The translations under genes and the position numbers were made by a program. A stretch of DNA of 43,980 bases from Candidatus Poribacteria bacterium (GTDB lineage: Bacteria; Poribacteria; WGA-4E; JAJRTO01): assembly GCA_024278235.1 (NCBI GenBank), contig JAJRTO010000216.1, forward strand, positions 1 through 43,980, read 5' to 3'. This document shows, one piece after another, positions 2 through 18,500 of this stretch; positions within the stretch are counted from its first letter, which is position 1, and each line of letters opens with the position of its first letter. Under the pieces are notes generated by a model that saw only the letters and a list, made by a program, of their open reading frames with translations, made no database searches and had not been told where the DNA came from.

Positions 2-2782
2 ACCCTGGCATTCAACAACAACGGAGATCCCTGGTGGCGTCATGGCCCGAATCCCGCGAGTTCGTCGGATATCTGGTTGGTCCGTGCGCAGGTTGGCGCC
101 GATGATTACCGGAAGCTCCCAACGGCACCGGGCCGAAACATGTGGCCGATGTGGGACGTTGACGGACGGAAGCTCTACTTTGTTTCAGATCGGGATGGGC
201 AAGAGAATCTCTGGTGTCAACCGATCGATAGTGATGAAGCAGAAAAGATCACCCGTTTTGAATCGGGTCGAGTGCTGCGTCCCTCCATTGGTGGCCAATG
301 GATCGTTTTTGAGCGGGACTTTGCTCTGTGGCGTCTGGATCTCCAAACCGATGAGGCGAGCCCCATCCCAATCAAGATCGTTGGGGATCTCAAACAAGTG
401 GAACGACAGCATGTCTCTTACAATGGAAACATGAATGAATTTGGGCTCTCCCCTGACGGCAAGAAGATCAGCATCGTTGTTCGGGGCGAATTATTTGCCG
501 TCTCGGCAGAGAAGGGCACTGAAAAAGGCCGCCCTCCCTTCCGCGTGACGGAGACCACCGCGCGCGAGTCACTCGTTTCCTGGAATCCCGAAAGCAAGCA
601 GGTCGTGTATATATCGGATCGGGATGGGAACAATCAGGTCTATCTCTATGATTTCATGGAACATAAGGAAACCCGGGTGACGGATGGTGCCGGTCAGAAG
701 TATCTGCCCAGATTCTCTCCTGACGGGAAGTGGATCGCCTATTTTCTGGGGGATTCAGAGATCCGCCTGATCAATACGGAGACCCATGAGGATCGTCCTT
801 TCATAGAAGGCATGTTCTGGGGCGTATCGCCTCCTTCGGACTATGCCTGGTCGCCGGATAGTAAGTGGATTGCTTTTGCAGCATGCGACGACCGATATTT
901 CATGAATCTCCATGTGCAGCATCTCGACTGGACAGAAGCACGTCCCATCACTTTTTTGAGCCATATTGGTGCCGGAGGCGTCCTCTGGTCTCCCGACGGA
1001 AAATACATCATCTTTGATACGACTCAATATCGTACAGAAACCCAGATCGCTCGCGTCGATCTGACCCCAATCCCACCAGAATTGCGCGAGGATGAATTCG
1101 ACAAGCTGTTTGAAGAAGATGAGGAAAACGAGAAAGAGAAAGAGAAAGAGAAAGAAAAGAAAGACAAAAAGGAGAACGGGGGAAGCGAATCGGCGGAGGT
1201 AGTGACGGAGAAGAAGGATGGCGGGGCAGACGACCAGGGAGAAAAAGAAAACAAACAGAAAAATGAAAAAGGAAAAGAGAAAAAGGAGCCGGAGCCTGTC
1301 GAAATTGAATTTGAAGGGATCCGATATCGGCTTCGTTTCCTCACCCATCATAAGCTCGGCGCCAGTGCACGGTGTATAAGCCCCGACAGCAAGACGCTGA
1401 TTTACTGTGCCCCATCCAATGGTGGACAGCGGAACCTCTGGAGTTTGTCGTTCGATGAAGACAAGAAGGAGGATCCGCCGAAGCAGTTGACGTCATCCAG
1501 TGGAGGCAAAGGAGCCGTCTATTTCGTCCCAGATGGGAAAAAGATCTACTTCACCGATGGTGGGAAGATCCACTCCCGAGAGTTTCCAGACGGGGATGCA
1601 AAAGCACTCGAAACCCAACTGAGCTTTGACGTGGACGTGCAGGCAGAGAAGATGCAGATGTTCCGCGAAGCCTGGACACTCCTGCACGACCATTTCTATG
1701 ATCCGGAACACCATGGAGCCGACTGGAACAGTGTACGAACTCAGATCGAACCTGTGCTGGCAGGCGTGCAAACGCAAAAGGAATTTCATGAACTGCTCAA
1801 CCTGATGCTCGGCGAACTCAATGCATCTCATCTGGGTGCTGGCGGTGGAGGAGCCGGGGTGCATAATGCCTACCTGGGTGTGGATTTTGATCAGGCTGAA
1901 CTTGAGCAATCCGGCCGGTACAGGATCTCTTACGTGTTCCCGGAGAGCCCCGCCACATTTGCGAAAGAACCACTCCAGGCCGGAGATACTATCCTGGAGA
2001 TCGATGGTTCTGCACTGGAACCTTATGCGAATCTGGATCTCCTTCTGTACCGTAAGGCGAACCGCCGGGTCCGCCTGAAAGTGAGGACCTCATCCGGGGG
2101 TGCAGATACGCGTGATGTCATCATCCAACCCACGCATGCAGGCGGTCATTCGGAATTGTGCTATAAGGATTGGGTACGTTGGAACGCACGTTACGTCCAC
2201 GAAAAGAGCGACGGCCGTCTTGGGTACGTCCACATACGTGCCATGTCTTATGAAGCCTATATCAAATTCATGGTCGATCTGGATACCGAAACGCATAGCA
2301 AAGAAGGGGTCATTGTCGATGTCCGTTTCAACGGCGGCGGACACATCGAGCCTTTTATCATCGACGTGATCCGTCGTAAGACGTTCACCTTCTCCACCTA
2401 CCGCAATCATCGGTCCGTGCCTTCTGCGACGATGGCCGGGAATTATGTTTTGGATAAACCCACCATCCTACTGCAGAACGAACACTCCTACAGCAATACC
2501 GAGATGTTCAGTGAAAGCTATCGCAGGCTGGGCCTTGGGAAGATCGTTGGCAAACCAACCGGTGGCGCGGTGATCTGGACATGGGGTTGGACTCTGCTGG
2601 ATGGCACCAGCCTCCGTCTGCCGCGTATGAAGGTGTCCACCATGGATGGAGAAAATCTCGAGGGAAATGCACGGCCTGTTGATTTTGAGAGAGACCGACC
2701 TCTGGGAGAAGCAGCCCAGGGCAAGGACAGTCAATTGGATGTCGCAATTGAAAAACTGCTGGAGCAGATCGATTCGGATTAG
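2..2782 (+). CDS. Tricorn protease homolog (beta-propellers + PDZ + S41 peptidase core); 5' end cut by window edge
   Basis: Frame is open from nt 2 (TLAFNNNGDPWWRHGPNP... precedes the TTG at 77). Repeated SPDGK/WSPD propeller motifs, PDZ-like LQAGDTILEIDG, and S41-type VRFNGGGH ... NEHSYSNTEMF ... GKPTGG near the C-terminus. Confidence 0.85.
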   Translation, partial: TLAFNNNGDPWWRHGPNPASSSDIWLVRAQVGADDYRKLPTAPGRNMWPMWDVDGRKLYFVSDRDGQENLWCQPIDSDEAEKITRFESGRVLRPSIGGQWIVFERDFALWRLDLQTDEASPIPIKIVGDLKQVERQHVSYNGNMNEFGLSPDGKKISIVVRGELFAVSAEKGTEKGRPPFRVTETTARESLVSWNPESKQVVYISDRDGNNQVYLYDFMEHKETRVTDGAGQKYLPRFSPDGKWIAYFLGDSEIRLINTETHEDRPFIEGMFWGVSPPSDYAWSPDSKWIAFAACDDRYFMNLHVQHLDWTEARPITFLSHIGAGGVLWSPDGKYIIFDTTQYRTETQIARVDLTPIPPELREDEFDKLFEEDEENEKEKEKEKEKKDKKENGGSESAEVVTEKKDGGADDQGEKENKQKNEKGKEKKEPEPVEIEFEGIRYRLRFLTHHKLGASARCISPDSKTLIYCAPSNGGQRNLWSLSFDEDKKEDPPKQLTSSSGGKGAVYFVPDGKKIYFTDGGKIHSREFPDGDAKALETQLSFDVDVQAEKMQMFREAWTLLHDHFYDPEHHGADWNSVRTQIEPVLAGVQTQKEFHELLNLMLGELNASHLGAGGGGAGVHNAYLGVDFDQAELEQSGRYRISYVFPESPATFAKEPLQAGDTILEIDGSALEPYANLDLLLYRKANRRVRLKVRTSSGGADTRDVIIQPTHAGGHSELCYKDWVRWNARYVHEKSDGRLGYVHIRAMSYEAYIKFMVDLDTETHSKEGVIVDVRFNGGGHIEPFIIDVIRRKTFTFSTYRNHRSVPSATMAGNYVLDKPTILLQNEHSYSNTEMFSESYRRLGLGKIVGKPTGGAVIWTWGWTLLDGTSLRLPRMKVSTMDGENLEGNARPVDFERDRPLGEAAQGKDSQLDVAIEKLLEQIDSD
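1112..1297 (+). repeat. Lys/Glu-rich low-complexity insert inside the tricorn homolog, including (GAGAAA)x4 at 1130..1153
   Basis: Translation EEDEENEKEKEKEKEKKDKKENGG...KENKQKNEKGKEKKEPEP. The purine-only hexamer repeat is visible in the DNA. Confidence 0.85.
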
Positions 2783-2838
2783 CTTTTAGCGATCCGCAAT
2801 GAGTTCTCAACAGAACATCGAGCTTCCCAACTTCTCAG

Positions 2839-3771
2839 ATGATTCATGTAAACGGACTGTTCAAGAAAATCAAGAAAACAGAGGTGCTACGGGACATCAC
2901 ATTCCAGGTAGGACAGGGTGAGATTCTTGGTATTGGGGGACAAAACGGCTCCGGGAAAAGCACGCTGCTACGTGTGCTGTCGGCATTGAGCAGACCAACG
3001 TCGGGAAGTGCGTCCATTGCAGGCTATGATGTCAGTAAACAGCCCCGTGAAGTCAAACGGTGTGTGGGCTATGTTGGAGCAGAACCCATTGGATACGAAA
3101 ACCTGCTTGTCGAGGAATACCTCGATTTCTGGGCATCTGCTCATGGTCTCCCGAAACAGGTTCGTGCCACCGTGGTTCAAGATGGCATCGCACTGGCGGA
3201 ACTCGAACCGTTTCGCCGTATGCCTCTCGGCGTTCTTTCAAAAGGCATTCGTCAACGGGTTCAACTGGCACGTGCCATACTCCACGACCCCCAGGTGCTC
3301 GTTCTGGATGAGCCGATCCAGTTGCTTGACACGGCTGGCGTCATTGAATGGCGGGGGATCATCCGAGAACTTGCATCACTGGGAAAAACGGTTGTGTTGG
3401 CCTCCGCTCAGCTCTGGCATTGGTTCCCCATCTGTCATCATGTTGCCTGGTTGCATGAAGGCCGGATGGTTGCATGCGACACATTGGACGCACTCTGTGG
3501 CCAGTATGGCATGCCTTACCTCACCCTGGTACAGTTTGACTCCGAGGAGATCGAGGCTCAGATACTTGAGGAGATCCCTGGGGTTTTGCAGATTGAGCCC
3601 CGGCTTTCTGGTTTCCAGTTCAGCCATTCAATAGAGCCGGGAGAACTGCTCGATCTGCTGATGGCACAACCGTGGAAGCTATGCGAATTTCGTCGAGATT
3701 GGGAAGGCATGGAACGCTGGCTGGCTTCTGTATTGAGTAGCCATGTGACAAAGCCTGGAACTGTCTCATGA
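2839..3771 (+). CDS. ABC transporter ATP-binding protein (no permease gene adjacent)
   Basis: Walker A GQNGSGKST, degenerate signature LSKGIRQR, Walker B VLVLDEP, ~90-aa C-terminal extra domain. Confidence 0.85.
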   Translation: MIHVNGLFKKIKKTEVLRDITFQVGQGEILGIGGQNGSGKSTLLRVLSALSRPTSGSASIAGYDVSKQPREVKRCVGYVGAEPIGYENLLVEEYLDFWASAHGLPKQVRATVVQDGIALAELEPFRRMPLGVLSKGIRQRVQLARAILHDPQVLVLDEPIQLLDTAGVIEWRGIIRELASLGKTVVLASAQLWHWFPICHHVAWLHEGRMVACDTLDALCGQYGMPYLTLVQFDSEEIEAQILEEIPGVLQIEPRLSGFQFSHSIEPGELLDLLMAQPWKLCEFRRDWEGMERWLASVLSSHVTKPGTVS

Positions 3772-3852
3772 ATGGACAGCGATGATGACGCCAGCCCGCG
3801 ATTCATTCGCTTACGTCGAACTCACGTTAACTAACAACGAAAGGATTTCATC

Positions 3853-4845
3853 ATGGTTAAAATTGGAATGATCAGTTTTGCTCACGTGCATGCCGAAGGG
3901 TATGCGAGACAAGTCAATGAAAATCCCGATGCAGAACTCGTTGCCATCTGGGATCAAGAGGAGTATGGTGGGAAACAAGCCGCTGAAAGGCATAACGTGC
4001 CCTTCTATGAGGATCTGGGGGCTTTCCTGGCAAGTGGCATCGACGCCGTTGTCGTGAACGCGATAACCGCCGATCATCCTGATGTCATGGTCGCAGCGGC
4101 TCAGGCAGGCAAACATATCTTCACAGAAAAGGCGCTCGCCATCGATGTCACCGGCTGTGATCAGATCATCGAAGCGGTCGAAGTGGCCAATGTCAAGTTC
4201 ATGATCTCGCTGCCATCGCGTGCCAATGGTGATATCCTGTTCGCCAAGAAAGCCGTCGACGATGGAATCCTGGGCGAGATCACTTTCGGACGTGGCCGTA
4301 TTGCTCACTCCGCCGCACTCGACCGTTGGTTTAGTGGCTCAAGTGCCTGGTTTGCCGATGCCGAGCGTGCCGGTGGTGGTGCACTGTTTGACCTGGGCTG
4401 CCATCGCGTCGATGTGATCCGCTGGCTCATGGGGGAACCTAAAAGTGTGATTGCCAAGATCAATAATTTCGCAGATGCCTACCCTATCGACGACAATAGC
4501 GTTGCTGTCGTGGAATTTGCCAACAAGGCATTGGGCATCATCGATTGTACCTGGATACACCGCTCTGGACCCAATATGCTCGAGATCTACGGCACGGAAG
4601 GTTCCATCGCTATCGGTCATGGAGGCATGCATTTCGAGACCCGGAAGCTAGACGAGGAACAGAAGAAAGAGTATCTGGAGAATCGTCCCGAACCACCTGA
4701 ATCACCAATGCGGCAATGGGTGAACGCTATCGAGAAAGACACACCCATGACCATCACGATCCAGGACGGACGCAATCTCACCGAACTTCTCCAGGCGACC
4801 TATCTGTCTGCTGAGCAGGGCCGGTCGATTGAGTTGCCGCTATAG
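3853..4845 (+). CDS. Gfo/Idh/MocA family NAD(P)-dependent oxidoreductase
   Basis: N-terminal Rossmann start MVKIGMISFAHVHAEGYA, EKAL motif (FTEKALA), family-typical C-terminal alpha/beta domain, GAAAGGA RBS upstream. Confidence 0.85.
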   Translation: MVKIGMISFAHVHAEGYARQVNENPDAELVAIWDQEEYGGKQAAERHNVPFYEDLGAFLASGIDAVVVNAITADHPDVMVAAAQAGKHIFTEKALAIDVTGCDQIIEAVEVANVKFMISLPSRANGDILFAKKAVDDGILGEITFGRGRIAHSAALDRWFSGSSAWFADAERAGGGALFDLGCHRVDVIRWLMGEPKSVIAKINNFADAYPIDDNSVAVVEFANKALGIIDCTWIHRSGPNMLEIYGTEGSIAIGHGGMHFETRKLDEEQKKEYLENRPEPPESPMRQWVNAIEKDTPMTITIQDGRNLTELLQATYLSAEQGRSIELPL

Positions 4846-4861
4846 CTTTCGATAGAACTTC

Positions 4862-6076
4862 ATGCAAACCTATGCAGGTAACGAATCCCATCGCAGATTT
4901 CCACTGATCCGTCTGCTTCTGATTTTAGGCGTCATCGCGTTCGCCGTGTGGTTTGCTCCGCGCGTCCTGGACCGCACCCCACCCAGCCTGTCCGTTGAGG
5001 GGCTGGAACCGGGTGGTCGATATCGTGGTGTGGTCAGTATCGCCATCACAGGAGAAGATTCAGGCCAGGGACTCGATATGGTGCGCGTGACCCGGGATGG
5101 TCAGTTTCTGGCCGAGATTCGTCTCCAGGGTAAACAAGCCCGGACCACCTATCCCTGGGACACGACTTCCCTGTCAGATGGCGTTTATCTGATACAGGTG
5201 GAGCTTACGGATGCCTCAATATGGCACAAAAGCTCCCGCGCTCAGTTCGATGTCATCGTCGATAATACGCCTCCGGAGATCGCTTTGCTCTCCGTACCGG
5301 AGAACGCGATACAAGGGCAGACGATCTCCTTTTTTGTAAAAAGTGATGAGACTTTACGAAAAGCGGAGGGGTCATTTCTCGACAGAAAGATCCCCTTCTT
5401 CTCTTCCGGCACTCGAATGCGGACCTTCGTGGGAATCCAACATAATGCCAATGCGGGAACATACAGGATGGAAGTCCGTGCATGGGATCTCGCCGGCAAT
5501 GAGAATGTCACCCAAATGCAGGTTGTGTTGAAGAAGGGGGATTTCAAAACGGGACGGGTGAACCTCTCCCAGAAGAAACGCTCCCTGCTCACAGATCGGG
5601 ACAAGAAGCAGACCAACCGAGAGAGGCGAGCACAGGCACTTGAGACAAGCAGTTCTCGACAGATCTGGAACGGTCTTTTCAAGAAACCCACCCGGGGGGT
5701 GACCACCTCAACGTTCGGAGCACGGCGTGTCTACAACAGTGGCGTGGTGCGTTCTGTCCATCTGGGGTGGGATATCGCGAATCGGAAAGGTACCGATGTG
5801 TTTGCTGCGAATGATGGCATCGTGGTGCTCGCAGAAGAACTCCCCATTCACGGCAACAACATCCTCCTGGATCACGGACAGGGAGTTTTCAGTGGCTACG
5901 CACATCTGAACGAGATTCTTGTCAGCGTCGGTGACGATGTTCAAAAAGGTCAACTCATCGGTCGCATGGGAACCACGGGGCAGTCCACAGGCTCTCATCT
6001 GCACTGGGAGATGTTTGTCCAGGGAGTGCCCGTGGATCCCGCGCAATGGTTGACACAGGATTTCAGAAGTCCTTGA
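4862..6076 (+). CDS. Membrane-anchored M23 (LytM-type) metallopeptidase with Ig-like middle domains
   Basis: N-terminal TM (LIRLLLILGVIAFAVWF). M23 signature HLGWDIA ... GNNILLDHGQGVFSGYAHL ... GTTGQSTGSHLHWEM. Confidence 0.9.
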   Translation: MQTYAGNESHRRFPLIRLLLILGVIAFAVWFAPRVLDRTPPSLSVEGLEPGGRYRGVVSIAITGEDSGQGLDMVRVTRDGQFLAEIRLQGKQARTTYPWDTTSLSDGVYLIQVELTDASIWHKSSRAQFDVIVDNTPPEIALLSVPENAIQGQTISFFVKSDETLRKAEGSFLDRKIPFFSSGTRMRTFVGIQHNANAGTYRMEVRAWDLAGNENVTQMQVVLKKGDFKTGRVNLSQKKRSLLTDRDKKQTNRERRAQALETSSSRQIWNGLFKKPTRGVTTSTFGARRVYNSGVVRSVHLGWDIANRKGTDVFAANDGIVVLAEELPIHGNNILLDHGQGVFSGYAHLNEILVSVGDDVQKGQLIGRMGTTGQSTGSHLHWEMFVQGVPVDPAQWLTQDFRSP

Positions 6077-6089
6077 TCTGTATATCCCG

Positions 6090-6857
6090 TTGTATTTGCA
6101 ATCCTATCGGAGGAATCGGAGTTTGGCAACCTCAATTGAGCAGAGGCAAAAGAAGGGGGATATCGGGGCGTTCGCCTGGAAGCCCCAAAGAGATCTTGCA
6201 GATCGAATGGACCCCGCCTTCTGGGATCCGCACCTGTTGAGCCAGATCGAGAAGCTCCATGCGATCCCTCATCCCATCGTGACGCTTGGTGATCTCGACC
6301 CGTTCATCACCTATGGTCCCATCGTCGTTGGCAGCGGTTTACCTGATGGAGCGGAGGGACCTTATTTCATCAATACATCGCACCTACTTCCTACCGGACT
6401 TGGGCCCCTCACCCAATGCGTTCCCCGGGGATCCGAGTGGGATATTCCCCGCTGTCGAGTCCAACAGGGGGATGTCTTACTGGTGCGCTCCGGAGTGGCA
6501 ACCCTCGGACGAACCATCGTTTACCTGGAGGATGAACCCGCTATTGTCGGCTGCTATGTCGATATTGTCCGTCAAGAAGCCGTGGATCCCTGTTACCTGT
6601 GCGTGTTTCTGAAATCCCGCTATGGACAGTTGCAGATCCAACGCCTCAAGAACGGTGTGGGGACAGTCAACCTCTCCTTTGCACAGATTCGCTCGATTCA
6701 ACTGCCCATTCTGCCGGATTCCACGCAAAACGAGATCGCCGAAGGATACAGGCAAGTGCATGCGCTGCACACATGCGGCAACAGGGAACTGGCAGAGCAA
6801 CATCTGAGGGTTCTGATCCAGCATCTGGAGCGGATGTTCTTAGCTCCTTACCAGTAA
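6090..6857 (+). CDS. HsdS-like DNA specificity protein with a single target-recognition domain plus one C-terminal helical conserved region
   Basis: TRD-type pattern: RMDPAFWDP ... QQGDVLLVRSGVATLGRTIVY ... YLCVFLKSRYGQLQIQRLKNGVGTVNLSFAQIRSIQLPILPDSTQNEIAEGY. TTG start 13 nt after the M23 stop; the exact start is uncertain. Confidence 0.7.
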   Translation: MYLQSYRRNRSLATSIEQRQKKGDIGAFAWKPQRDLADRMDPAFWDPHLLSQIEKLHAIPHPIVTLGDLDPFITYGPIVVGSGLPDGAEGPYFINTSHLLPTGLGPLTQCVPRGSEWDIPRCRVQQGDVLLVRSGVATLGRTIVYLEDEPAIVGCYVDIVRQEAVDPCYLCVFLKSRYGQLQIQRLKNGVGTVNLSFAQIRSIQLPILPDSTQNEIAEGYRQVHALHTCGNRELAEQHLRVLIQHLERMFLAPYQ

Positions 6858-6887
6858 ATTTCTTGCCCGACGGGCAAAAGACTCGGT

Positions 6888-6913
6888 TCATCCGACTTGC
6901 GTGTGGTCATGGG
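6888..6913. repeat. 26-nt exact repeat TCATCCGACTTGCGTGTGGTCATGGG, copy A (copy B at 30272..30297, same orientation)
   Basis: Direct comparison of the two intergenic sequences. 29 nt match with one mismatch if GG[T/C] is included. Copy A ends 1 nt before the AGGAG SD of the methyltransferase. Confidence 0.95.
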
Positions 6914-6924
6914 TAGGAGAACTT

Positions 6925-7632
6925 ATGTCGCCAACTCGTAAAGATCTCGGGCAGTATTTTACCCCGCCGGAAATCATCCGCTTCATCTACGATATGATCG
7001 ACTTTCAGCCCCATTGGCGCGTTATGGATCCTGCCTGTGGAGATGGAGGCTTTCTGCGGGAAGCTATCCAACGCGGTTGTACCAACGTCACGGGGATCGA
7101 TATCGATCCGGGAGTTGTGAGACAAGCCCGGTGTCATTTAGCAGGAGCCCGAATTCACTGTGCGGATGGCCTCCAGTACAAGTACGATACCTTCGATTTG
7201 GTGATCGGCAATCCACCTTTCCGCAATCAACACCGTGCCCTCTATTCGGAGACTGTGAAGCATTCACTCTGCAAAGAAGTGAATTTTCCAGCGGATCGAT
7301 CCATCCCTCTGGAAGTGCTGTTTCTGGCGAAGTTCATCGCTCTGGCACGTCCCAGTGGCAAAGTCGCCATCATCCTTCCTACCGGTGTGTTCGCCAACTC
7401 CCGACTGCGTTTTGTGAGGGAATACCTGATCGAGCAATGCACGTTACATGCGGTTGTTCAATTGCCCCCCGGTGCCTTCCGACATACCCAGGCACACACG
7501 TGCATCCTCCACTTGACTCGCACCCCTTCATCCGTTCACCATCAGGTGTTCCTGGCCGTTGTGGGTCGGGATCTACGGAGGAGTTTGGATCGGGTCTTGA
7601 GTACATGGCGAGCGAAAGAGATAGGGGGATAG
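6925..7632 (+). CDS. Minimal gamma-class N6-adenine DNA methyltransferase (catalytic domain only, 235 aa)
   Basis: GQYFTPP (motif X), MDPACGDGGFL (motif I), GIDID (II), VIGNPPF (IV), GKVAIILP, LPPGAF. AGGAG lies 5 nt upstream of the ATG at 6925; the track ORF begins at GTG 6901. Confidence 0.85.
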   Translation: MSPTRKDLGQYFTPPEIIRFIYDMIDFQPHWRVMDPACGDGGFLREAIQRGCTNVTGIDIDPGVVRQARCHLAGARIHCADGLQYKYDTFDLVIGNPPFRNQHRALYSETVKHSLCKEVNFPADRSIPLEVLFLAKFIALARPSGKVAIILPTGVFANSRLRFVREYLIEQCTLHAVVQLPPGAFRHTQAHTCILHLTRTPSSVHHQVFLAVVGRDLRRSLDRVLSTWRAKEIGG

Positions 7633-7644
7633 GGGGATAGGGAG
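7621..7644. repeat. Three tandem 8-mers ATAGGGGG/ATAGGGGG/ATAGGGAG spanning the methyltransferase stop codon
   Basis: Read directly. Followed by the small hairpin GTTTCT-cctat-AGAAAC (7644..7660) between the convergent genes. Confidence 0.9.
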
Positions 7645-7675
7645 TTTCTCCTATAGAAACAGGATAAAATGCCCG

Positions 7676-9826
7676 CTACAGCGTCCCATCTCCTGTCCCA
7701 TACACTTGCTTATACACTGCGTAGCTATGCATCACGCGCTTGATATGGTTGCGTGTTTCGGTGATGGGAACATCCTCGATGAACTCATCCATATCCTGGA
7801 GGGCAAGCTCCTTCGTCCAGCGTTGCATGCGGCCGGGACCGCCGTTGTACGCTCCGGAGACGAGTTCAGGGCTCTTGAATTGTTTCATCAGCTTGCCCAT
7901 GTACCAGGATCCGAAGCGGATGCTGATGTCCGCCCGGGTGAGCATGGAGGTTCGGAAGTTGCGGATCTTGAGACGTGAGGCGATATCCTTCGCCGTGGCT
8001 GGCATCAACTGCATCAATCCAATCGCGCCCGCATGAGAGACAATATCCGCCTGATAACGGCTTTCCTCGCGGATCATAGCGGCCACGAAGAGCGGATCCA
8101 GTTGAGAATCTGCCGCATGGATGGTGACCAGTTGACGGTAATAGAAGGGATAGATACGCTTGAACAAGGACTCTGGAAGCCGCCCCTGAGTATCACGCCA
8201 ACCTTTCAGCCGTGAGAGACGGTAGGCATAAAGCGATGCCTGACGAAACTTCCGCGCTTTTTCAGAGCACACGATCAAGTAGTAATAGATGGAGGCACGC
8301 TGGGATTCCGCTGTAGAGAGCGCGCTCCGGAGGTCCGCAAGGGCATCATCATAAGCTCGGGCACGGAATAGTAGTGGCAATTGGGGCAGGGGATGGGCCT
8401 GGATCGCATCCAACATTTCGGGAGCGTCATGGGTGAGGGGCGTTCGGGATGGTCTCGAACGCTCTATCTTCCCGTCCCGGACCAATTGCTGGAGTCGTGT
8501 CTCAGCCCGATACATGTAATACCAGTCATTTTCGTCGATGATCTGGGCATAGGTACGGGCTGCGGCTTCCCATTGCTGTAATCGCTCATAGAGCTTACCG
8601 ACCCAATACTGAGCAGCATCGCCCGTACTGGTTTGTGGAAATTTCCTTGCCAGCTTCTGGAAGGTTTGCTTGCTCTGTTGGAAATCTTTCAGCTTGAAAT
8701 AGCACCAGCCAACATTCCAGAGCGCGTCATCCGTGAGCGAACTTCGGGTATATTGGCGTAGCAGTTGCTTATAGGCGTTGATAGCTTCTTTATAGCGTTT
8801 CCGTTTCTGTTCTGTCCGACCAACTTCATAGAGAGCGTTATCCGCCAGGGCACTCCAGGCATAGGTCTTCACAAAGTTCATCAGCAACTGGTTGCTTTTG
8901 GTAACCTGTCCCTTGCGCCGGTAGACCAGCGCGGTCTGGTAGAGAGAGCGTGTCAGATAGCCACTTGCACTGTAGCGATCCCGGATCTTGGCGTACTCGC
9001 GGATCGCATCGTCGTATTTACGTTGCGCCGCATAACTCTGGCCGATCAGATAGACTGCCTGACCGGCCAGTTTATCCCGGTACGTCCCAATAATCTTCTT
9101 CAGTATTTTCCGTGCCTCTGTACGTTGCCGGGAGGCAAGGAGTACTCGAGCATGCTGGAGTCGTTCGGATCGAGTTGGGCGGATAGAAACGGCCTTGCTC
9201 GTGACTATCAAAATGCGTTCGTAAGCCTGCTGAGCCTGATCATCTGTGGCCTTGGCGGTGAGAATCTGCTGATAGGCTCGGTAAGCCTGCTCCCAATCTT
9301 CCAACCCTTCATACGCCTGGGCGCACAGAAACAGTGCGTCCCGGCTTTTCTTGACACCCGATTGCTTATAGACATCCAGGGCCGACGAGTAGTTCTTGAG
9401 TTCGAGTTCCGCCTGAGCAAGACGGTATCGAGCATCCGAAGCTCTGGAGTAGCTCGGGTGGTCCTCTAACAAGCGTCGATACCACACGACAGCATTTGCC
9501 GGATCCTCCAACGCATCGTAGGACTGTGCGATGCGCCATTTCAAATGATCCTGAATCTCAAATCCGTTCTCAAGGGCCACTTTGTAGATAGGAATCGCTT
9601 TTTCCCATTGTTTCTGGATTTGATAGGCGTTCCCCAGCACATAGCGTGTTAGATTCTGATCAGATGGGTTCCGGAGTTTAGGCAGAACTTCCTGTAGAAT
9701 TGGGATCGCTTCCTGATATCGTCCGTCATCTATCAGCGTAAGTGCGTCTTCAAGCGAATCGGTATATCCTGCACGACAGGAGTTCAGCGCAAACAGGATG
9801 CTTAACAATAGGGTTAGCTGACGCAT
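7676..9826 (-). CDS. Soluble lytic murein transglycosylase (TPR/superhelical N-domain + SLT catalytic domain), secreted
   Basis: Signal peptide MRQLTLLLSILFALNSCRA, many TPR-like repeats, SLT motif MIREESRYQADIVSHAGAIGLMQLMPATA ... AYNGGPG. Confidence 0.9.
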   Translation of the reverse strand: MRQLTLLLSILFALNSCRAGYTDSLEDALTLIDDGRYQEAIPILQEVLPKLRNPSDQNLTRYVLGNAYQIQKQWEKAIPIYKVALENGFEIQDHLKWRIAQSYDALEDPANAVVWYRRLLEDHPSYSRASDARYRLAQAELELKNYSSALDVYKQSGVKKSRDALFLCAQAYEGLEDWEQAYRAYQQILTAKATDDQAQQAYERILIVTSKAVSIRPTRSERLQHARVLLASRQRTEARKILKKIIGTYRDKLAGQAVYLIGQSYAAQRKYDDAIREYAKIRDRYSASGYLTRSLYQTALVYRRKGQVTKSNQLLMNFVKTYAWSALADNALYEVGRTEQKRKRYKEAINAYKQLLRQYTRSSLTDDALWNVGWCYFKLKDFQQSKQTFQKLARKFPQTSTGDAAQYWVGKLYERLQQWEAAARTYAQIIDENDWYYMYRAETRLQQLVRDGKIERSRPSRTPLTHDAPEMLDAIQAHPLPQLPLLFRARAYDDALADLRSALSTAESQRASIYYYLIVCSEKARKFRQASLYAYRLSRLKGWRDTQGRLPESLFKRIYPFYYRQLVTIHAADSQLDPLFVAAMIREESRYQADIVSHAGAIGLMQLMPATAKDIASRLKIRNFRTSMLTRADISIRFGSWYMGKLMKQFKSPELVSGAYNGGPGRMQRWTKELALQDMDEFIEDVPITETRNHIKRVMHSYAVYKQVYGTGDGTL

Positions 9827-9998: not shown

Positions 9999-10451
9999 CT
10001 AACACCAGCGTTGCTTATCTACAACATTCTTCAGGGGTTCACCTGCGATGAACCGACGGAGGTTTTCTTTCAGACCCCCGATGTGCCGCTCCCGCGTGTG
10101 GATGTCCACACCCGCTACGTGCGGTGTGATGATAACGTTCTCCATATCCCATAGCGGATGCTCGGATGGCAATGGTTCCGTCTCGAACACATCGAGTCCG
10201 GCGCCTGCGATCTCAGCATTTTGCAGGGCATGGGTCAACGCCTCCAGATCCACGACGCCCCCCCGCGAGATGTTGATCAGATAGGCTGTTTTCTTCATGA
10301 GCCGGAGTTGTGGATCAAAAACTTCATCTGCTGCCTCTCCCTGGTTCATACCATTTTGGGTTTGAAATCCCAGTGTTGGATCTTCCTTGTTGTATGGATT
10401 CGGATGCTTTATAATCGGTCCGTATCCTGAACGTAGAAAGGAATCTCTCAT
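9999..10451 (-). pseudogene. Remnant of a D-isomer-specific 2-hydroxyacid dehydrogenase (C-terminal third only)
   Basis: Family similarity only from about nt 10325 downward: KKTAYLINISRGGVVD ... GAGLDVFETEP ... ITPHVAG. The GxGxxG NAD-binding region and the substrate domain are absent. The first ~42 codons are unrelated sequence, and the ATG shares a TCATGA with the divergent cupin start. Confidence 0.7.
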
Positions 10452-10845: not shown

Positions 10846-12264
10846 CTATTCGCCTGGAATCCATTGGATATAAATGTCACTGTCCTCCCCGTTGCGCTGA
10901 TCCATCCAGGACACGACAAGCCCCGTCGGAATCCATATCCCCTCCGGCTCGCTCTGCTCCGCGTCTGCGGTTGTGACGGGAAGACCGTTGGGTTCCCAGA
11001 GGATATTCCCGTCCTGGTCAACGCGTTGCGCATAGATATGGTCCACGAGCACCATCGCGTAGTCCTCACGATAGTCCTTCCAGAAAATACATGCGCCGTT
11101 CTCTGCAACGATGATCCGGGGTTCTCTCTGCATCCCCTCAGCAAGACAGATCGGGAGTCCGTTCTCCTGCCATAGTGGTGTGCCATCAGCGTTCACGCGT
11201 TGCGCATAGATATCAGAGTAGATATCACGCTCATCCCACCACGTCAGAATGATCCCACCTTGTCCATCGCTGATCGCTGTTGGCTGCTGTTGAGCGTTCT
11301 GAAGAGTGCAGATGGGGACCCCATCTGCATCCCATTGCTGATTCCCATCCGCTCCAAGATGCTGAGCATAGAGATCCCCAATAGGATCCATGCGATAATC
11401 CACCCAGGCGACAATGGCCCCTCCTTGTCCGTCTGATACAGCGAGCGGGCCTCCCTGATTTCCAGCCACAGTGCATACGGGCATACCTGTTTCGTTCCAC
11501 TGCTTTTCGCCGGTAGCACTGATGCGCTGCGCATAGATATCCCAGTCCGGCGTGCTAATATCCCACCATACGACAACAGCGCCGCCTTCACCGTCGTTCA
11601 CGAGTACCGGATCGTATTGGTCACCGGGAATCTGACACACGGCGATGCCGTTCTCACCCCAGAGCATCGTACCATCGGGCGCAATCCGTTGAGCGTAGAT
11701 ATCCTGGTTACCGTTACGCCAATCTTCCCAGGCGGCAATCACTCCTCCTTCGCCGTCCGGGATCAGGACAATATTCTCCTGGAGAGCCGGATCGACACAC
11801 ACGGGGATCCCTTCAGAAGCCCAGAGTTTGTCGCCATTGGCGTCCACGCGCTGCGCATAGATATCCTGACTCCCGTGCCGCGCTTCTCCCCACAGAACGA
11901 TGGCACCTCCACTGTTATCACTGATAGCTTCGGGCCAACCCTGGGCACTGTCTTCGGTGCAGAGTGGGATCCCATTCAGATCCCAGAGAATGTCACCCTC
12001 CGCGTTCAAATGCTGGGCATAAATATCCCGGTTCCCCCTCCGGGCATCCTGCCAGAACACAAAACACCCACCTTCCGCATCCGGTGCCAGCGTCGGAAAG
12101 TGCTGATCGTTTTCGGCGGTGCATACGGGGATGTTCGTGGAAGTATCAAGGGTCCATGCGGCAAGTGCCAGGCCAGTGCTACAGAACCACAGCAGGCAAG
12201 AATAGAACATCTTCCACATCACTGCATTCCATTTCGGGGGTTTCATCCATGCCAGATTTGTCAT
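10846..12264 (-). CDS. Secreted repeat protein: eight ~53-aa repeats (predicted 8-bladed beta-propeller), function unknown
   Basis: Signal-like N-terminus (MFYSCLLWFCSTGLALAAW). Eight units of the form NG(I/L)P(V/I)C-x12-DG(E/Q)GG-x4-W-x7-DIYAQR(V/I)-x2-(D/N)G-x3-W. Confidence 0.8.
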   Translation of the reverse strand: MTNLAWMKPPKWNAVMWKMFYSCLLWFCSTGLALAAWTLDTSTNIPVCTAENDQHFPTLAPDAEGGCFVFWQDARRGNRDIYAQHLNAEGDILWDLNGIPLCTEDSAQGWPEAISDNSGGAIVLWGEARHGSQDIYAQRVDANGDKLWASEGIPVCVDPALQENIVLIPDGEGGVIAAWEDWRNGNQDIYAQRIAPDGTMLWGENGIAVCQIPGDQYDPVLVNDGEGGAVVVWWDISTPDWDIYAQRISATGEKQWNETGMPVCTVAGNQGGPLAVSDGQGGAIVAWVDYRMDPIGDLYAQHLGADGNQQWDADGVPICTLQNAQQQPTAISDGQGGIILTWWDERDIYSDIYAQRVNADGTPLWQENGLPICLAEGMQREPRIIVAENGACIFWKDYREDYAMVLVDHIYAQRVDQDGNILWEPNGLPVTTADAEQSEPEGIWIPTGLVVSWMDQRNGEDSDIYIQWIPGE

Positions 12265-12270
12265 CCCGGA

Positions 12271-13293
12271 TCACGGTCTAATCACCGGGAGCATATTGAC
12301 GTTTACACGTCGCGTGTCACGAAATGAGTTGGTTGAGACCTCCATGACAATGCTGTCACCTTCAGCCGCCGACAGGATCATCGGGTCGCGAACGATCTGA
12401 AGATCGATATTGGGCAGAACCTGTTCCTTTAGAATCCTTCTAAACAGACGCAGTTCAGCAACATCGGATTCTTTTTCTTCTTCCTCCAGGACCATCCCCA
12501 TCTGGCTTTCGACTGTGGGAGCACTTGAGAGTTGATCCATCGGTCCACCAGCCCGTGCTTCGTCGCCAACCTCCACTGTTTCCTCTTTGTGTTCGTCCCC
12601 GGAACGGGTGACCTCCTGGATGTTTTCCTCTGTTGTGGTCAGATCGGCGGTCACCTGAGCATCGCGGAGTTCACGTTCCTGAGCCAGAGGCTGATCGCTT
12701 GCGATGATTTCCCGAACCTCATCGAGCTGTTGGACACGTTCCTCAAGCTGCACCACACGCTCCGCCTCCGCCTCTTCAGCGTTTTCTGCCCGGGCTACCA
12801 CCCGATCTTTTCTTTGGAGCCCATCGGGGTTTAGCTCCGTGGTTTCCGTTGATACCAGCATATCTGTCTGTTGCAGACTATCCACAGCCATCTGTTTTTC
12901 GGCTTCAAGTTCCGCTTTGATGGCACGTGTTTGTTCGATCTGTTGAGTTTGAGCAGATGGTTGCACCGTCTGATATTGTCCTACGGGTCCCACACCTGCA
13001 GCCCCACCTCCATATACAAATTGGGGCATGAAATCGGAAGCGGTTTGCTGGAGTGAAAGAGTGATCACAAACGTTCGGTTTCTTGCGCTGTAATGCGTCT
13101 TTAGGGCTGGGTTGATTTCCACACGTAGGCCAAGTGGGGTCGGATTGATCTCGCGCGCTGCAGCCTTCCACAGCATATCCGCGAATTCATGGACACGTCT
13201 TCTCGGGGCTGCCGGGATGAGCTGGGTCACTTGCTTGAGACACTCTAGCATCTCGTTCATGACAATACCGGATAAAGCAAAAGGCATCGACAT
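12271..13293 (-). CDS. Hypothetical protein with acidic, Gln/Glu-rich coiled-coil centre
   Basis: 340-aa ORF ending 6 nt before the repeat-protein start. No motif I can name. The central ~180 aa are E/Q/A-rich with heptad character. Confidence 0.7.
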   Translation of the reverse strand: MSMPFALSGIVMNEMLECLKQVTQLIPAAPRRRVHEFADMLWKAAAREINPTPLGLRVEINPALKTHYSARNRTFVITLSLQQTASDFMPQFVYGGGAAGVGPVGQYQTVQPSAQTQQIEQTRAIKAELEAEKQMAVDSLQQTDMLVSTETTELNPDGLQRKDRVVARAENAEEAEAERVVQLEERVQQLDEVREIIASDQPLAQERELRDAQVTADLTTTEENIQEVTRSGDEHKEETVEVGDEARAGGPMDQLSSAPTVESQMGMVLEEEEKESDVAELRLFRRILKEQVLPNIDLQIVRDPMILSAAEGDSIVMEVSTNSFRDTRRVNVNMLPVIRP

Positions 13294-14583: not shown

Positions 14584-14614
14584 TCGTGAAAAGCCTTTCT
14601 AAACTAGTTGCGAG

Positions 14615-14818
14615 TTATGTTCCGGTCAATCCAAGCTCAGCAAGTGAGGAAGCCGTTATAAATCTCTCAGCTATCTTGGTCAACTCATCCTCTGATTCAA
14701 TCTTCTGCACTCTATCAGCAACCTCCTGTGGCAATGGACCAAATTTGACTTGCAGTTGTCGCATCAAAAGCTTTTGCATTCCCTGCCGTTCGAGTTTGTC
14801 AAAGTAGGTTCCTTGCAT
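14615..14818 (-). CDS. Possible nested in-frame small protein (67 aa, DUF4351 tail only) from internal start Met228
   Basis: GGAGGTG (14825..14831, minus strand) lies 6 nt upstream of the in-frame ATG at 14818. Product: MQGTYFDKLERQGMQKLLMRQLQVKFGPLPQEV... Confidence 0.35.
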   Translation of the reverse strand: MQGTYFDKLERQGMQKLLMRQLQVKFGPLPQEVADRVQKIESEDELTKIAERFITASSLAELGLTGT

Positions 14819-15499
14819 TTCTCTCACCTCCTGATATTCTTCCTCTGCGAGTAGACGTTGGAAATCTGTTTCCTCGTCAGGGGTAAGCTGATAACACGTT
14901 GTGATAAAGTTAATCAGCAGTGCTCTTTTGGCTTCGTCCAGAGAACTCTCTCCGACACGACGATAGCACTCTATGAGTAGCAGTGCACGTTCCCGCTCGC
15001 CGCTGTCCATCAATGACGCAAATCCCCATGAAATCGGATTGTCCTCAGCCCAATAATCATCCACCGATATGCCAGGCAAGCCAATGTGAAAATAGTTGAA
15101 GCTGAGGAGTTCGTGACCAAACAGTTCCTCACAGTATGCTTCCTGTTCAAAACCTTTAACCTTACGTTCAGGTAAAATGGCGATAGGAAAGACGGACAAT
15201 CGGTGACGTAACCGCAGCAGCACGTAATACTCGAACATCCGATAGGGAAAGGTACATCGCCACGGATGTTCCACCTCAACGTGGACTAGAATCAACTCAG
15301 GTTCACCCTCGTGCGTTGCAACCTTCGCAACAAGGTCAGCCGTTCGGCGTGAACCCTCCGGTACATTGGTAAACACCTCTTGCTCCAGAAACTCGATCTC
15401 TCGCCAGTTCAGCCGGGATGTAACCTCTGGAAAGAACAGTTCGATGAATTCCTTGAAGAACGTCTTCAGTAGATCTTTGAAAAGTTGATCATACGTCAT
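14615..15499 (-). CDS. Rpn/YhgA-like PD-(D/E)xK nuclease ('putative transposase') with DUF4351-like C-terminal tail
   Basis: N-terminus MTYDQLFKDLLKTFFKEFIELFFPEV, nuclease core RRTADLVAKV ... ELILVHVEVEH, tail LLMRQLQVKFGPLPQEVADRVQKIESEDELTKIAERF. Sampled lines are more AT-rich than the flanks. Confidence 0.75.
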   Translation of the reverse strand: MTYDQLFKDLLKTFFKEFIELFFPEVTSRLNWREIEFLEQEVFTNVPEGSRRTADLVAKVATHEGEPELILVHVEVEHPWRCTFPYRMFEYYVLLRLRHRLSVFPIAILPERKVKGFEQEAYCEELFGHELLSFNYFHIGLPGISVDDYWAEDNPISWGFASLMDSGERERALLLIECYRRVGESSLDEAKRALLINFITTCYQLTPDEETDFQRLLAEEEYQEVREMQGTYFDKLERQGMQKLLMRQLQVKFGPLPQEVADRVQKIESEDELTKIAERFITASSLAELGLTGT

Positions 15500-15514
15500 T
15501 TAGTATCGGTAACG

Positions 15515-18500
15515 CTATCTTTTCCACCATCTCAGGAAGCCTTTACTATCCAGATAGGCTTCACAGCGGGTAATGATCCCAGCATCGTTCGAGTGTCCAT
15601 CGAACTGAAGCGTCAGGAAGGGCTTTCCAGCGGCATCTCTGACGTAATGTTTGATATAGGAATCGGGTCCGCACTTGAAATTGGTGATATAGATGATGTG
15701 GAGGTTGTCATGTTGACCCACAATACGGGCTGCCTGGAGAATCTTGCGCCCGTAATTCCAGTACATATTGGGATTGATATCGCGAATATCAATATCTTCA
15801 AGTGGGAGGAAATCCATCGGTATGACATTGGCGCCGTAGTAGTCACGTAGTTTGCCAGGGATATCCAGATTGATACCGCTGTCATAGATATTGTACGGGC
15901 GACCTACCATGACGATACCAAAGGCCCCACCCTCTTCCAGAGCAGTCAATGCCTGATTGCCCGCCTCCTTGATCTTCCTACTGAATTTCTCCTGTGCTTC
16001 ATACCCGGCCTCCACAGCCTGATTGCAGAGACGCGGACTCAATCGGAACTGACGGGCCAGAGGACGGAGTTCGCGCTTGACATACTCCATGCCCTCGCGG
16101 AAATGGATAGTCGGTTTCAACAATTTGTCCCGGTATTCCTCCACCATGGGTGCGTGATTGATGACAAAAGGCAAGGTCTGCCCCCAGGGGCAGAGATGCG
16201 AATTCACCTCCGGAAACTCCGTTTCAGCGTTGATCACGTTTGGCAGGAAGATGTAATCCACACCTTCATCCAATAGAACGCGGACATGCCCATGAGCCAC
16301 CTGGATGGGGAAACAGGGTTCTGAAACGACAGCATCCACACCGTGGTTTGTGATGACCCGGTTCGTTCTTTGCGATAGTCGGAGTTGGAATCCAAGCTGC
16401 TTAAAGAAAGCATTCCAAAATGGGAAGCGTTCGTAGAAATACATGGCGCGTGGAAAGCCGATCACAGGCCCATCACCCGCCTCCTCATCATAGTCAGCCA
16501 GAAAGAGTTCTTCACGGAGCGCTATCAGATCTTCGATGACCACTTCGCGATCAGATTTTGCACGCTGGCGAAACTGATCCGAACACTTATCTCCCCAATA
16601 GGTACGCTCACCTTCCACATTGAATTCCTGGATATCACAGTAATTCGAGCAGGCCCGGCACACGAAGTCCTTGATCGAGTAGTCGATGTCCTCTAAGCTG
16701 GATCCTCGGAATGTCGTTTCGGCATCCGTCGCTTCCATCTTCTCTCTGGCGAGGAGAGCCATCCCGATGGCACCGATGACACCATTGTGAGGAGGCACGA
16801 TGATCTCTTTATCCAGTACGGTTGCAAAGGCAGCGGCCACTGAATCGTTGTAGGCGGTGCCGCCCTGGAAATAGATCGTGTCACCAATCCTGCGAGCACG
16901 GACGACTCGGTTGAGATAGTTATGAACAATCGAGTAAGCCAGTCCTGCGGTGAGATCTGCTTTCGAAGCTCCCTGTTGGAGGTAAGGGGTCAGATCTCGC
17001 TCCATGAATACAGTGCACCGCTCGCCGAGACGTATGGGACCATCTGAACCCAGGGCGAGTTCTGCAAATTCACCTTTGATCTGGATCCCCATACGTTCTG
17101 CTTGCTCCTCCAGGAAAGAACCGGTCCAGGCAGCACATGCCTCGTTCATCGTAAAGTCAACAACGATGTCATCCTGAATACTGATATATTTGGAGTCTTG
17201 TCCACCGATCTCAAAGATGGTGTCCGGTGTTCGACCGATCAATTTGCCACCGACATAGGTCGCACCCGTTTTGTGGGCAGTGATCTCATCGTTGATGGTA
17301 TCTGCACCAACGAGCTTACCGATCAGTTCCCGGCCAGAACCTGTGGCACCCACCCCACGAATACGGATCTTATCGCCAATATCCTCCTGGATCTCCTGGA
17401 GACCCTCATTCACAACCTCAATCGGTCTGGAACGGGTGGGTTCGTAGATTTCCTTGACCAGTTCTCCCTCGCTATCGAGCACAACGAGATTGGTACTCAC
17501 CGAGCCGACATCGATTCCCAGATAGGCATCGACCGGTAGTTGTTTCCCTTCGAAGGTGTAAGGACGAGTACGATCCCGCAATGTCACGACTTTTTCCATC
17601 GATAGCGGTTGGGTGCGCGGAAAGCTCTCCATCATCGCACTAGTATGTGCAGAAAGCGCGTCGAGTGGTTTGGGTGGATGTTTTTGCGGAGCATGATACT
17701 CCAGTAATGCGGCTCCAATCGCTCCCATCCAGGCATAATGGGCGGGCACAAAAAGCTGTTCATCATTCAGCTTGAACAAGGTGTGCATGGCTTCCACAGC
17801 ACCCTTGTTCGCTGCGACACCACCGATGAAGGCTACCCGGGGAACGATCCTTTTGCCTTTTGTGATCGCGCCTTTGAAATTACGCACAACGGCTTCGCAA
17901 AGCCCCTTGAGGATCTCGGGCGGCTGAGCACCTTTCTGCTGAGCATGGATCATATCTGATTTAGCGAAGACTGAGCAGCGACCGGCAATGGTTGCCGCTT
18001 TTCCCGCCTGCATCACGATATCTCCGACATCCTCAATCGCGTATTGAAGACGTGAAGCCTGTTGATCCATGAACGATCCGGTGCCCGCAGCACAGTCCCC
18101 ATTTGTCTCATAATCTGCGATGCCAACAATCCCGTTTTCTGTGTTCAAGCTGATAAACTTGGAGTTGACTCCCCCCATCTCAAAGATGGTACTTACATCT
18201 GGATGCATGCTTCCCACACCATGAGCAACGGCCCTGAAGTCATTCTCAAGGGCCGCTCCGAGCAATTGGCCTATCAGTTTGCTGCCAATCCCGGTAACTC
18301 GTATGCCCGCAGGGGTTGGAATGAAATTGTAGAGTTCTTCAAGCAGGTCGTAGGTGGTCTGGATCGGTTCGCCTTTGATACGCCGATATTCAGATAACAC
18401 AAGCATCTGCCCCAGTGACGAATCCTCCACCATCTTGAAGTTGTAACTCTTATCACACAACTGCTGTAGAGAAGCCTTGTCGCTCCCCTCACCCAGCACT

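Follow-up and report, generated by a model that had tools for sequence, protein, structure and literature searches.

How does a gene that resembles a toxic nuclease come to lie between the two genes of one enzyme, and does it carry a second, smaller protein within its own frame? The question is raised by a contig of Candidatus Poribacteria (JAJRTO010000216.1, assembly GCA_024278235.1), which is part of a metagenome-assembled genome and of which we analysed positions 1-43,980; this whole 44-kb stretch is referred to as the window. On its minus strand, an open reading frame (ORF) encoding a product of 294 amino acids (aa), read from the sequence, is packed between genes for a 1010-aa and a 413-aa protein. 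A sequence-only reading of the window had described it as an Rpn/YhgA-like nuclease gene lying in an enzyme operon, with an internal Shine-Dalgarno (SD) sequence and ATG predicting a nested small protein. Its account of the ORF, of the 15-nt and 31-nt spacing and of the shared strand was borne out by the sequence (Table 1). In E. coli and C. difficile, an internal ribosome-binding site (RBS) and start codon within rpn genes produce the short protein RpnS (Zhong et al. 2023, PMC10400941), which as a dimer forms a three-helix bundle, binds the long form RpnL and blocks its nuclease and toxicity (PMC10400941). We found that a horizontally acquired RpnL/RpnS-type gene-within-gene module, lodged in an enzyme operon, best explains the locus, with a probability of about 0.75.

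A database search returned 89 homologues at 25-82% identity. A few of them bear the name 'Rpn family recombination-promoting nuclease/putative transposase', TIGR01784 or YdaD, annotations that occur at 27-82% identity. The window protein contains the motifs RRTADLV (D55) and LVHVEVEH (H73, E75 and E77), as had been pointed out. In an alignment of 62 full-length members, D55, H73 and Y91 were invariant and D4, E75 and R87 nearly so (E75 in 59/62; D4 and R87 in at least 90%). When the members were scanned singly against Pfam, PF14261 (DUF4351) was found in 43/62, PF04754 (Transposase_31, YhgA-like) in 17/62 and PF12784 (PDDEXK_2) in 3/62. The profile of the 62 homologues was aligned by hhalign to E. 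coli RpnC at 97% (E 8e-11, residues 1-112) and to E. coli RpnA at 70% (E 4e-5), pairing D4, D55, E75, E77 and R87 of the window protein with D11, D63, E82, Q84 and R94 of RpnA, respectively. The RpnA substitutions D11A, D63A, E82A and Q84K abolished all phenotypes (Kingston et al. 2017, PMC5350276); Q84A and R94A proteins were still toxic, and R94A abolished recombination (PMC5350276). Membership in the Rpn/YhgA-like family, as first proposed, is supported by the profile match and by the alignment of the catalytic residues. The family is large and common: at E cut-offs of 1e-3, 1e-10 and 1e-30, its profile matched 31,457, 9,014 and 1,875 cluster representatives, respectively.

AlphaFold2 (AF2) modelled the full-length protein with a pLDDT of 90.2 as an alpha/beta core followed by helices at 220-253, 258-266 and 270-280. 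Foldseek searches of the PDB returned low-TM-score partial matches with E >= 2e-3, many of them to PD-(D/E)xK proteins (NucS/EndoMS, Hjc, MspJI, Cap4, Card1, SduA and McrC); a full-length Rpn structure appears not to be available. Measured against four relatives, dN/dS was 0.11-0.14, lower in the N-terminal part (0.08-0.11) than in the C-terminal part (0.21-0.27), so the Rpn-like gene is under purifying selection and is a functional gene. A pseudogene reading was rejected or down-weighted.

The C-terminal part of the protein is of the DUF4351 (PF14261) type. With a cut-off of 25 bits, the full protein scored 26 bits and the 67-aa part alone 29.2 bits. Of the two domain assignments made by the sequence-only reading, the DUF4351-like tail was therefore recovered by profile search, whereas the N-terminal domain alone matched no Pfam model. 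For the 67-aa protein, AF2 predicted helices at 5-26, 31-39 and 43-55 (pLDDT 80), and some RpnS proteins are known to carry a DUF4351 annotation (PMC10400941). Comparison by hhalign of the C-terminal profile with RpnA and RpnC was insignificant except for the FEEKGIEKGIQQG repeat segment of RpnC. Partner specificity of the E. coli and C. difficile proteins is set by a 4-aa repeat whose copy number varies and which begins 8-20 residues beyond the internal Met (Zhong et al. 2023, PMC10400941). The relatives of the window gene carry 4-aa units (GIEQ, GREE, GLER, GRQE and others) in 0 to ~8 copies, starting ~12 residues past the internal Met, and their number differs by 0-2 already among close relatives (66-82% identity).

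The coding strand of the window gene reads ...CAG GAG GTG AGA GAA ATG..., so that the SD motif GGAGGTG is separated by six nt from an ATG that is codon 228 and lies in frame. The combination GGAGGTG-N6-ATG occurs once in the window, against 0.12 expected. The nested start was tested on the DNA of 47 unique full-length family genes at window-equivalent positions, a strong site being a start codon with an SD duplex of -8 kcal/mol or below. An ATG or GTG was present at positions 224-229 in 46/47 genes. Strong sites were found in 15 genes at position 228 and in 5 at position 225, with three at most at any other position. Of the 22 genes in which position 228 is ATG, 15 have kept the SD. Over all 22, the SD energy averaged -10.5 kcal/mol, compared with -7.05 +/- 0.71 kcal/mol after synonymous resampling, where 0/1000 samples attained the level of the real genes. 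At 274 other internal ATGs it averaged -3.65 kcal/mol, with 4% at or below -8 kcal/mol.

Genes without Met228 gave a second view of the same feature. Here Val225 is encoded by GTG in 15/17 cases, and two further genes have ATG at this position; GTG usage in the family is 40%. In the subclade L094-L118 (codons 221-228), Val, Ala or Glu stands in place of Met228, and a GTG (in one case ATG) is retained three codons upstream, behind an AAGGAG formed by Lys-Glu-Tyr codons. The internal start seems to have migrated between subclades (ATG at 228, GTG at 225) and not to have been lost, with the 4-aa repeat hallmark persisting. We also found that SLMTIAERLRQEGEQ (RpnA, iMet244) and MMTLAQWFEEKGIEKGIQQG (RpnC) of E. 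coli share columns with the family pattern M-x-T-[IV]-Y-E-x-R-G-I-E-x-G, the RpnC residues in the internal-Met column being MMTL. Met244 of RpnA is an experimentally proven internal start (PMC10400941). Judged by the family genes, the internal start and its SD are conserved beyond what the protein sequence requires, which upholds the predicted 67-aa frame and extends it across the family. A second SD-like GGAGGT (Pro-Gln-Glu-Val codons; window 14708-14733, minus strand) lies 9 nt 5' of an in-frame GTG (Val264), with -11.2 kcal/mol; this site is probably incidental because it is present in just 2/47 family genes.

Could Met228 be merely structural, GGAGGTG a by-product of the Gln-Glu-Val codons and the full-length protein the single product of the gene? 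The Q/E-E-V residues are indeed conserved in the protein and able to encode GGAGGT themselves, and other conserved Met columns exist (M88 and M164). However, synonymous resampling gave far weaker SDs than those observed, and the M88 and M164 columns are almost devoid of SDs, with 2 and 0 strong sites, respectively, against 15 at 228. Moreover, subclades lacking Met228 turn to GTG three codons upstream, with an AAGGAG drawn from different residues, and the position coincides with the proven internal translation initiation site (iTIS) of E. coli RpnA (PMC10400941). We consider it quite unlikely that the gene makes no separate small protein.

The history of the locus was read from homologous sites. 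When 185,579 species-representative genomes were scanned with the 413-aa protein, 80 loci were recovered, spanning Acidobacteriota, Latescibacterota, KSB1, Planctomycetota, Bacteroidota, Eisenbacteria and others. Where upstream sequence could be read (~66 loci), the gap from the end of the 1010-aa homologue to the 413-aa homologue is about -10 to 181 nt, and no Rpn-like gene was found within 6 kb at any of the 80 loci. In the closest relative, locus L172 (79% aa identity in the 413-aa protein, 71-74% nt identity), the 1010-aa gene is followed by a 56-nt spacer, the 413-aa gene and the 340-aa gene, and the Rpn site is empty. Both flanks of the window insert are collinear with L172. The spacer end TAGAAAGG...ATG is common to the window and to the empty site (L172 2061-2123), which limits the insert to the ORF plus at most ~15 nt upstream and ~12 nt downstream, ~900 bp in all. 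The five nearest Rpn homologues (74-82% identity) reside elsewhere, namely behind URO-D, between GFO_IDH_MocA genes and beside 3keto-disac_hyd genes, the URO-D-side site being orthologous in two species. Compared across these loci, the Rpn-like gene is an insertion, horizontally acquired, between the enzyme genes, and the synteny agrees with what had been proposed from the window alone.

The same comparison bears on the idea that the Rpn-like gene encodes a subunit, whether integral or accessory, of the BCR/HAD (PlsA/PlsR-like) enzyme and is kept there by need. The tight same-strand packing, with its two short spacers and no terminator, is what such a subunit gene might show. Synteny refutes it: the enzyme genes are directly adjacent in ~66 genomes of many phyla, no locus of the 80 has an Rpn-like gene, the closest relative has the empty site, and the nearest homologues of the gene occupy unrelated contexts. 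We give this possibility practically no credence. A separate observation from the scan is that the 413-aa PlsR-like gene has no preceding 1010-aa gene in 7/80 loci (L012-L014, L036, L054, L057 and L070; Latescibacterota, KSB1 and others), so the PlsA-like/PlsR-like pair is not obligatorily linked.

A further alternative is that the ORF results from a chimeric metagenome assembly join, or that it is an autonomous transposase of the insertion sequence (IS) type. The contig does belong to a metagenome-assembled genome, 'putative transposase' is a frequent annotation in the family, and the ORF is ~4-5 points lower in GC than its flanks. The dip in GC is genuine yet small (47.3% in the ORF, 51.7% and 51.3% in the flanking genes and 52.3% in the window, with GC at third codon positions of 49% in the ORF and 57% and 54% in the flanking genes); the lower value reported by the sequence-only reading was thus real, but the contrast was overstated. 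A chimera would have to be double, with both junctions within one intergenic spacer and flanks that are nevertheless collinear with L172. As to an IS element, neither terminal inverted repeats (TIR) nor a target-site duplication (TSD) were found at the insert junctions, autonomous PD-(D/E)xK transposases are not known, and rpn genes lack defined ends (PMC10400941). The sole flanking repeat is a 21-nt direct repeat (76% identity; 14638-14658 and 15525-15545, 887 nt apart), with its copies close to where the Rpn ORF and the 1010-aa gene end; we did not treat this repeat as a target duplication because it is at chance level by rough estimate. An artefact or an IS-type transposase is in our view most improbable. 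No second copy of the Rpn-like gene was found within the window.

Several results weigh against the interpretation as an RpnL/RpnS-type module. The N-terminal 227 residues of the window protein matched nothing in Pfam, NCBIfam, PADLOC or PHROGs, and the YhgA/Rpn link is visible only via the family profile, with the window protein alone reaching no nuclease model. With the full-length AF2 model as query, Foldseek found nothing in the PDB at E <= 1e-3, PDB sequence-profile searches with full-length and C-terminal alignments gave only spurious coiled-coil matches, and Foldseek of the 67-aa model retrieved nothing, RpnA-S included. The window protein has Glu77 where RpnA has Gln84; given the split at this position among the 62 members (Q 31, E 29, D 2), Glu is a normal subfamily variant, and the position tolerates change. 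The window copy contains no extra 4-aa repeat, just the basal unit (ERQGMQK). The neighbourhood is of the housekeeping kind and not a defence island, a location in such islands being for the Rpn family a statistical trend rather than a defining trait, and PADLOC run on the three genes gave no matches. Between the genes on the minus strand, a scan for terminators and for promoters, the latter recognised by the sigma-70 consensus only, detected no internal promoter, and no signal exceeded what shuffling leads one to expect. Finally, the sequences used in the conservation tests are phylogenetically related, which makes the p-values optimistic; despite this kinship, two different codon solutions (ATG at 228 and GTG at 225) serve one feature, which argues for selection on initiation.

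We compared the initiation signals of the genes in the operon. The RpnL start has an SD duplex energy of +0.2 kcal/mol, i.e. there is no SD in the 15-nt spacer, while the RpnS start has -14.3 kcal/mol, the strongest in the operon; the values for the 1010-aa, 413-aa and 340-aa genes are -4.0, -2.6 and -7.2 kcal/mol. Four close relatives possess an RpnL leader of their own, aGGTGAAAA-ATG, with SDs of -6.8 to -10.4 kcal/mol, to which the window spacer shows no homology. Just 3' of the Rpn stop, three of them also have a conserved stem-loop, ggagtgcaatgactt...aagtcattgcactcc (L088:1731-1790, L001:6897-6960 and L005:5204-5260), which the window copy lacks and which may serve as a terminator or be REP-like. 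Upstream neighbours are co-oriented with family genes in 23/30 cases, which is not clearly above the general bacterial background.

These signals are compatible with the following scheme. The ~900-bp insert, co-oriented with the host genes within a PlsA/PlsR-like intergenic spacer, has no recognisable promoter, terminator or long-form SD, and is presumably co-transcribed with the host operon. RpnL (294 aa) would be a YhgA-like PD-(D/E)xK DNA endonuclease, toxic by analogy with the E. coli Rpn proteins, and initiation at the internal SD and Met228 would yield the 67-aa three-helix RpnS. RpnS may bind the long form and hold the nuclease inactive until a trigger, probably phage infection, frees it. 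The long form would be scarce, perhaps arising by re-initiation 15 nt past the upstream stop, and the short form abundant, a ratio of the sort that a toxin-antitoxin pair needs. It is also conceivable, although very doubtful, that such an operon-embedded Rpn module makes toxin synthesis depend on termination-reinitiation by ribosomes arriving from the lipid-enzyme gene, with a separate supply of the antitoxin through its own strong SD. If true, the toxin/antitoxin ratio would follow expression of an anaerobic ether-lipid operon, and the module would stabilise the operon or couple abortive infection to membrane-lipid remodelling.

Another reading concerns the role in phage defence. A functional Rpn-like nuclease with its nested partner might instead serve selfish addiction, recombination or housekeeping, the last of which is allowed for by Zhong et al. 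(PMC10400941); there are no nearby defence genes or PADLOC matches, and the orthologous URO-D site in two species suggests stable vertical inheritance. Against such roles, the variation in 4-aa repeats throughout the family, together with a distribution that is patchy and independent of context, fits the kind of diversifying selection found in defence systems (PMC10400941), and one homologue (locus L146, see below) is found in a phage-like context. We regard a role outside defence as unlikely, though it is the alternative that we would take most seriously.

Table 1. Features of the Rpn-like locus in the window (minus-strand genes; coordinates refer to the 43,980-nt stretch).
Feature	Position	Strand	Remarks
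Upstream host gene, 1010 aa	15515..18547	-	PlsA/Ger-type BCR/HAD; PF01869 x2 (1.7e-68), PF09989 (1e-58), TIGR00241
Upstream spacer, 15 nt	15500..15514	-	From 1010-aa stop to RpnL ATG; without SD; contains upstream insertion junction
RpnL-like full-length ORF, 294 aa	14615..15499	-	YhgA-like PD-(D/E)xK domain (N-terminal), DUF4351 three-helix domain (C-terminal)
Catalytic core codons	15269..15337	-	D55 15335-15337, E75 15275-15277, E77 15269-15271
Internal Shine-Dalgarno GGAGGTG	14825..14831	-	Encoded by Q-E-V codons
Internal start ATG (Met228), predicted iTIS	14816..14818	-	Same family column as RpnA Met244
Nested RpnS-like frame, 67 aa plus stop	14615..14818	-	Predicted antitoxin/dimerisation domain, three-helix; PF14261
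Downstream spacer, 31 nt	14584..14614	-	From Rpn stop to 413-aa gene; downstream insertion junction no further than ~12 nt from the stop; host-derived RBS TAGAAAGG at 14594-14601
Downstream host gene, 413 aa	13342..14583	-	PlsR-like second reductase-type subunit; PF09989 weak, E 0.032

The enzyme genes on either side were assigned by their domains. The 1010-aa protein contains two BcrAD_BadFG ATPase domains (PF01869) and one DUF2229 reductase-like domain (PF09989); the 413-aa protein matches PF09989 weakly, and many of its homologues carry this domain. Two BcrAD_BadFG domains and DUF2229, followed by a second reductase-type subunit, make up the PlsA/Ger ether-lipid architecture, which has been reported for the anaerobic synthesis of plasmalogens and alkyl-ether lipids (PMC12838417; preprint 10.64898/2026.06.23.733905). 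We infer, from domain architecture only, that the flanking pair is a PlsA/PlsR-like ether-lipid enzyme.

Directly 3' of the 413-aa gene, a 340-aa protein (window 12271-13293, minus strand) has no Pfam match and is rich in Gln/Glu in its central part; with synteny preserved in the closest relative (L172:3389-3799), it may be a lineage-specific third operon member. The 472-aa protein that follows (10846-12264, minus strand) has many repeats ending in DIYAQR/H and a weak Lipoprotein_15 match, and looks like a secreted beta-propeller-like repeat protein. A 150-aa ORF (9999-10451, minus strand) resembles just the C-terminal part of a D-2-hydroxyacid dehydrogenase (NISRGGVVD, ITPHVAG) and may be a truncated gene or have its start misplaced. 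The wider neighbours are metK, ahcY, a peroxiredoxin, SLT and an ABC-type membrane protein. Rfam matched nothing in the window.

Taken at the level of sequence comparison, the window gene joins the known RpnL/RpnS gene-within-gene toxin-antitoxin/defence family, with no sign of a new mechanism, and understanding of how the Rpn family works stays unchanged by it. Its value lies in the comparative evidence for an internal start, in a clean empty site and in a toxin start without SD set against a strong antitoxin SD. The antitoxin-within-toxin principle of 2023 would extend to an Rpn subfamily of the DUF4351 type that is found in uncultured bacteria and is very divergent. The pair of filled and empty sites indicates that an rpn gene can enter the spacer of a two-subunit enzyme operon as a bare ORF and then use host signals. 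For annotation, such '294-aa hypothetical proteins' are better named Rpn family proteins with a nested small ORF.

The suggestion that the genomic context is undescribed for the family carries little weight. rpn genes have been reported as single-gene insertions, attributed to horizontal gene transfer, with variable ends (Zhong et al. 2023, PMC10400941). E. coli rpnC (yadD) itself lies between panD and panC-panB (L171:2315-5602, corresponding to K-12 NC_000913 146314-149601); it is on the opposite strand to the pan genes and has its own expression signals, whereas the window copy is co-oriented with its neighbours across the 15-nt and 31-nt spacers. Another case is found at locus L133 (Ga0216301_1000283), where a subfamily gene (3986-5020) lies between DUF444 (2673-3914) and SpoVR (5060-7726), behind PrkA (711-2669). 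As in the window, the gene is inside a conserved operon, with spacers of 71 nt and 39 nt. It is conceivable, although again very doubtful, that the repeated lodging inside conserved operons, of which prkA-DUF444-spoVR is a further instance, stems from a specific mechanism of insertion directed at intergenic spacers. The SpoVR gene of L133 contains an intein with a LAGLIDADG domain. At locus L146 (Ga0163147_10005779:2560-5790), an Rpn-like gene (3992-4879) follows the gene of a Terminase_6C protein at a distance of 4 nt and overlaps the next gene, which encodes an ABC/AAA-type ATPase, by 4 nt; this context looks phage-like or prophage-like.

Compared with the E. coli Rpn proteins, the window protein has much in common with RpnA-E and RpnP2: a YhgA-like PD-(D/E)xK domain with a D...ExQ/E core and the HD/YD..FK N-terminal motif, an in-frame internal SD and start that would open a small three-helix C-terminal domain at the RpnA Met244 column, a position ~12 residues past the internal Met at which 4-aa repeats vary in number, insertion as a single gene without TIR or TSD, and a size of ~290-300 aa. 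It differs in being only ~20% identical to them, over the first ~110 residues only, and in having a C-terminal domain of the DUF4351 type, for which the E. coli Rpn proteins give no Pfam match. Relative to RpnA, it has Glu at the Q84 position and a predicted short form of 67 aa instead of the 49 aa of RpnA-S. Unlike the E. coli genes, the window copy has no extra repeat unit, detected internal promoter or long-form SD, and it sits co-directionally in a host operon. Within its own subfamily, the window copy differs just by its site and by the missing leader and downstream hairpin. The window protein thus finds its place, with no essential difference, in the DUF4351-containing Rpn subfamily (TIGR01784/COG5464) of environmental bacteria.

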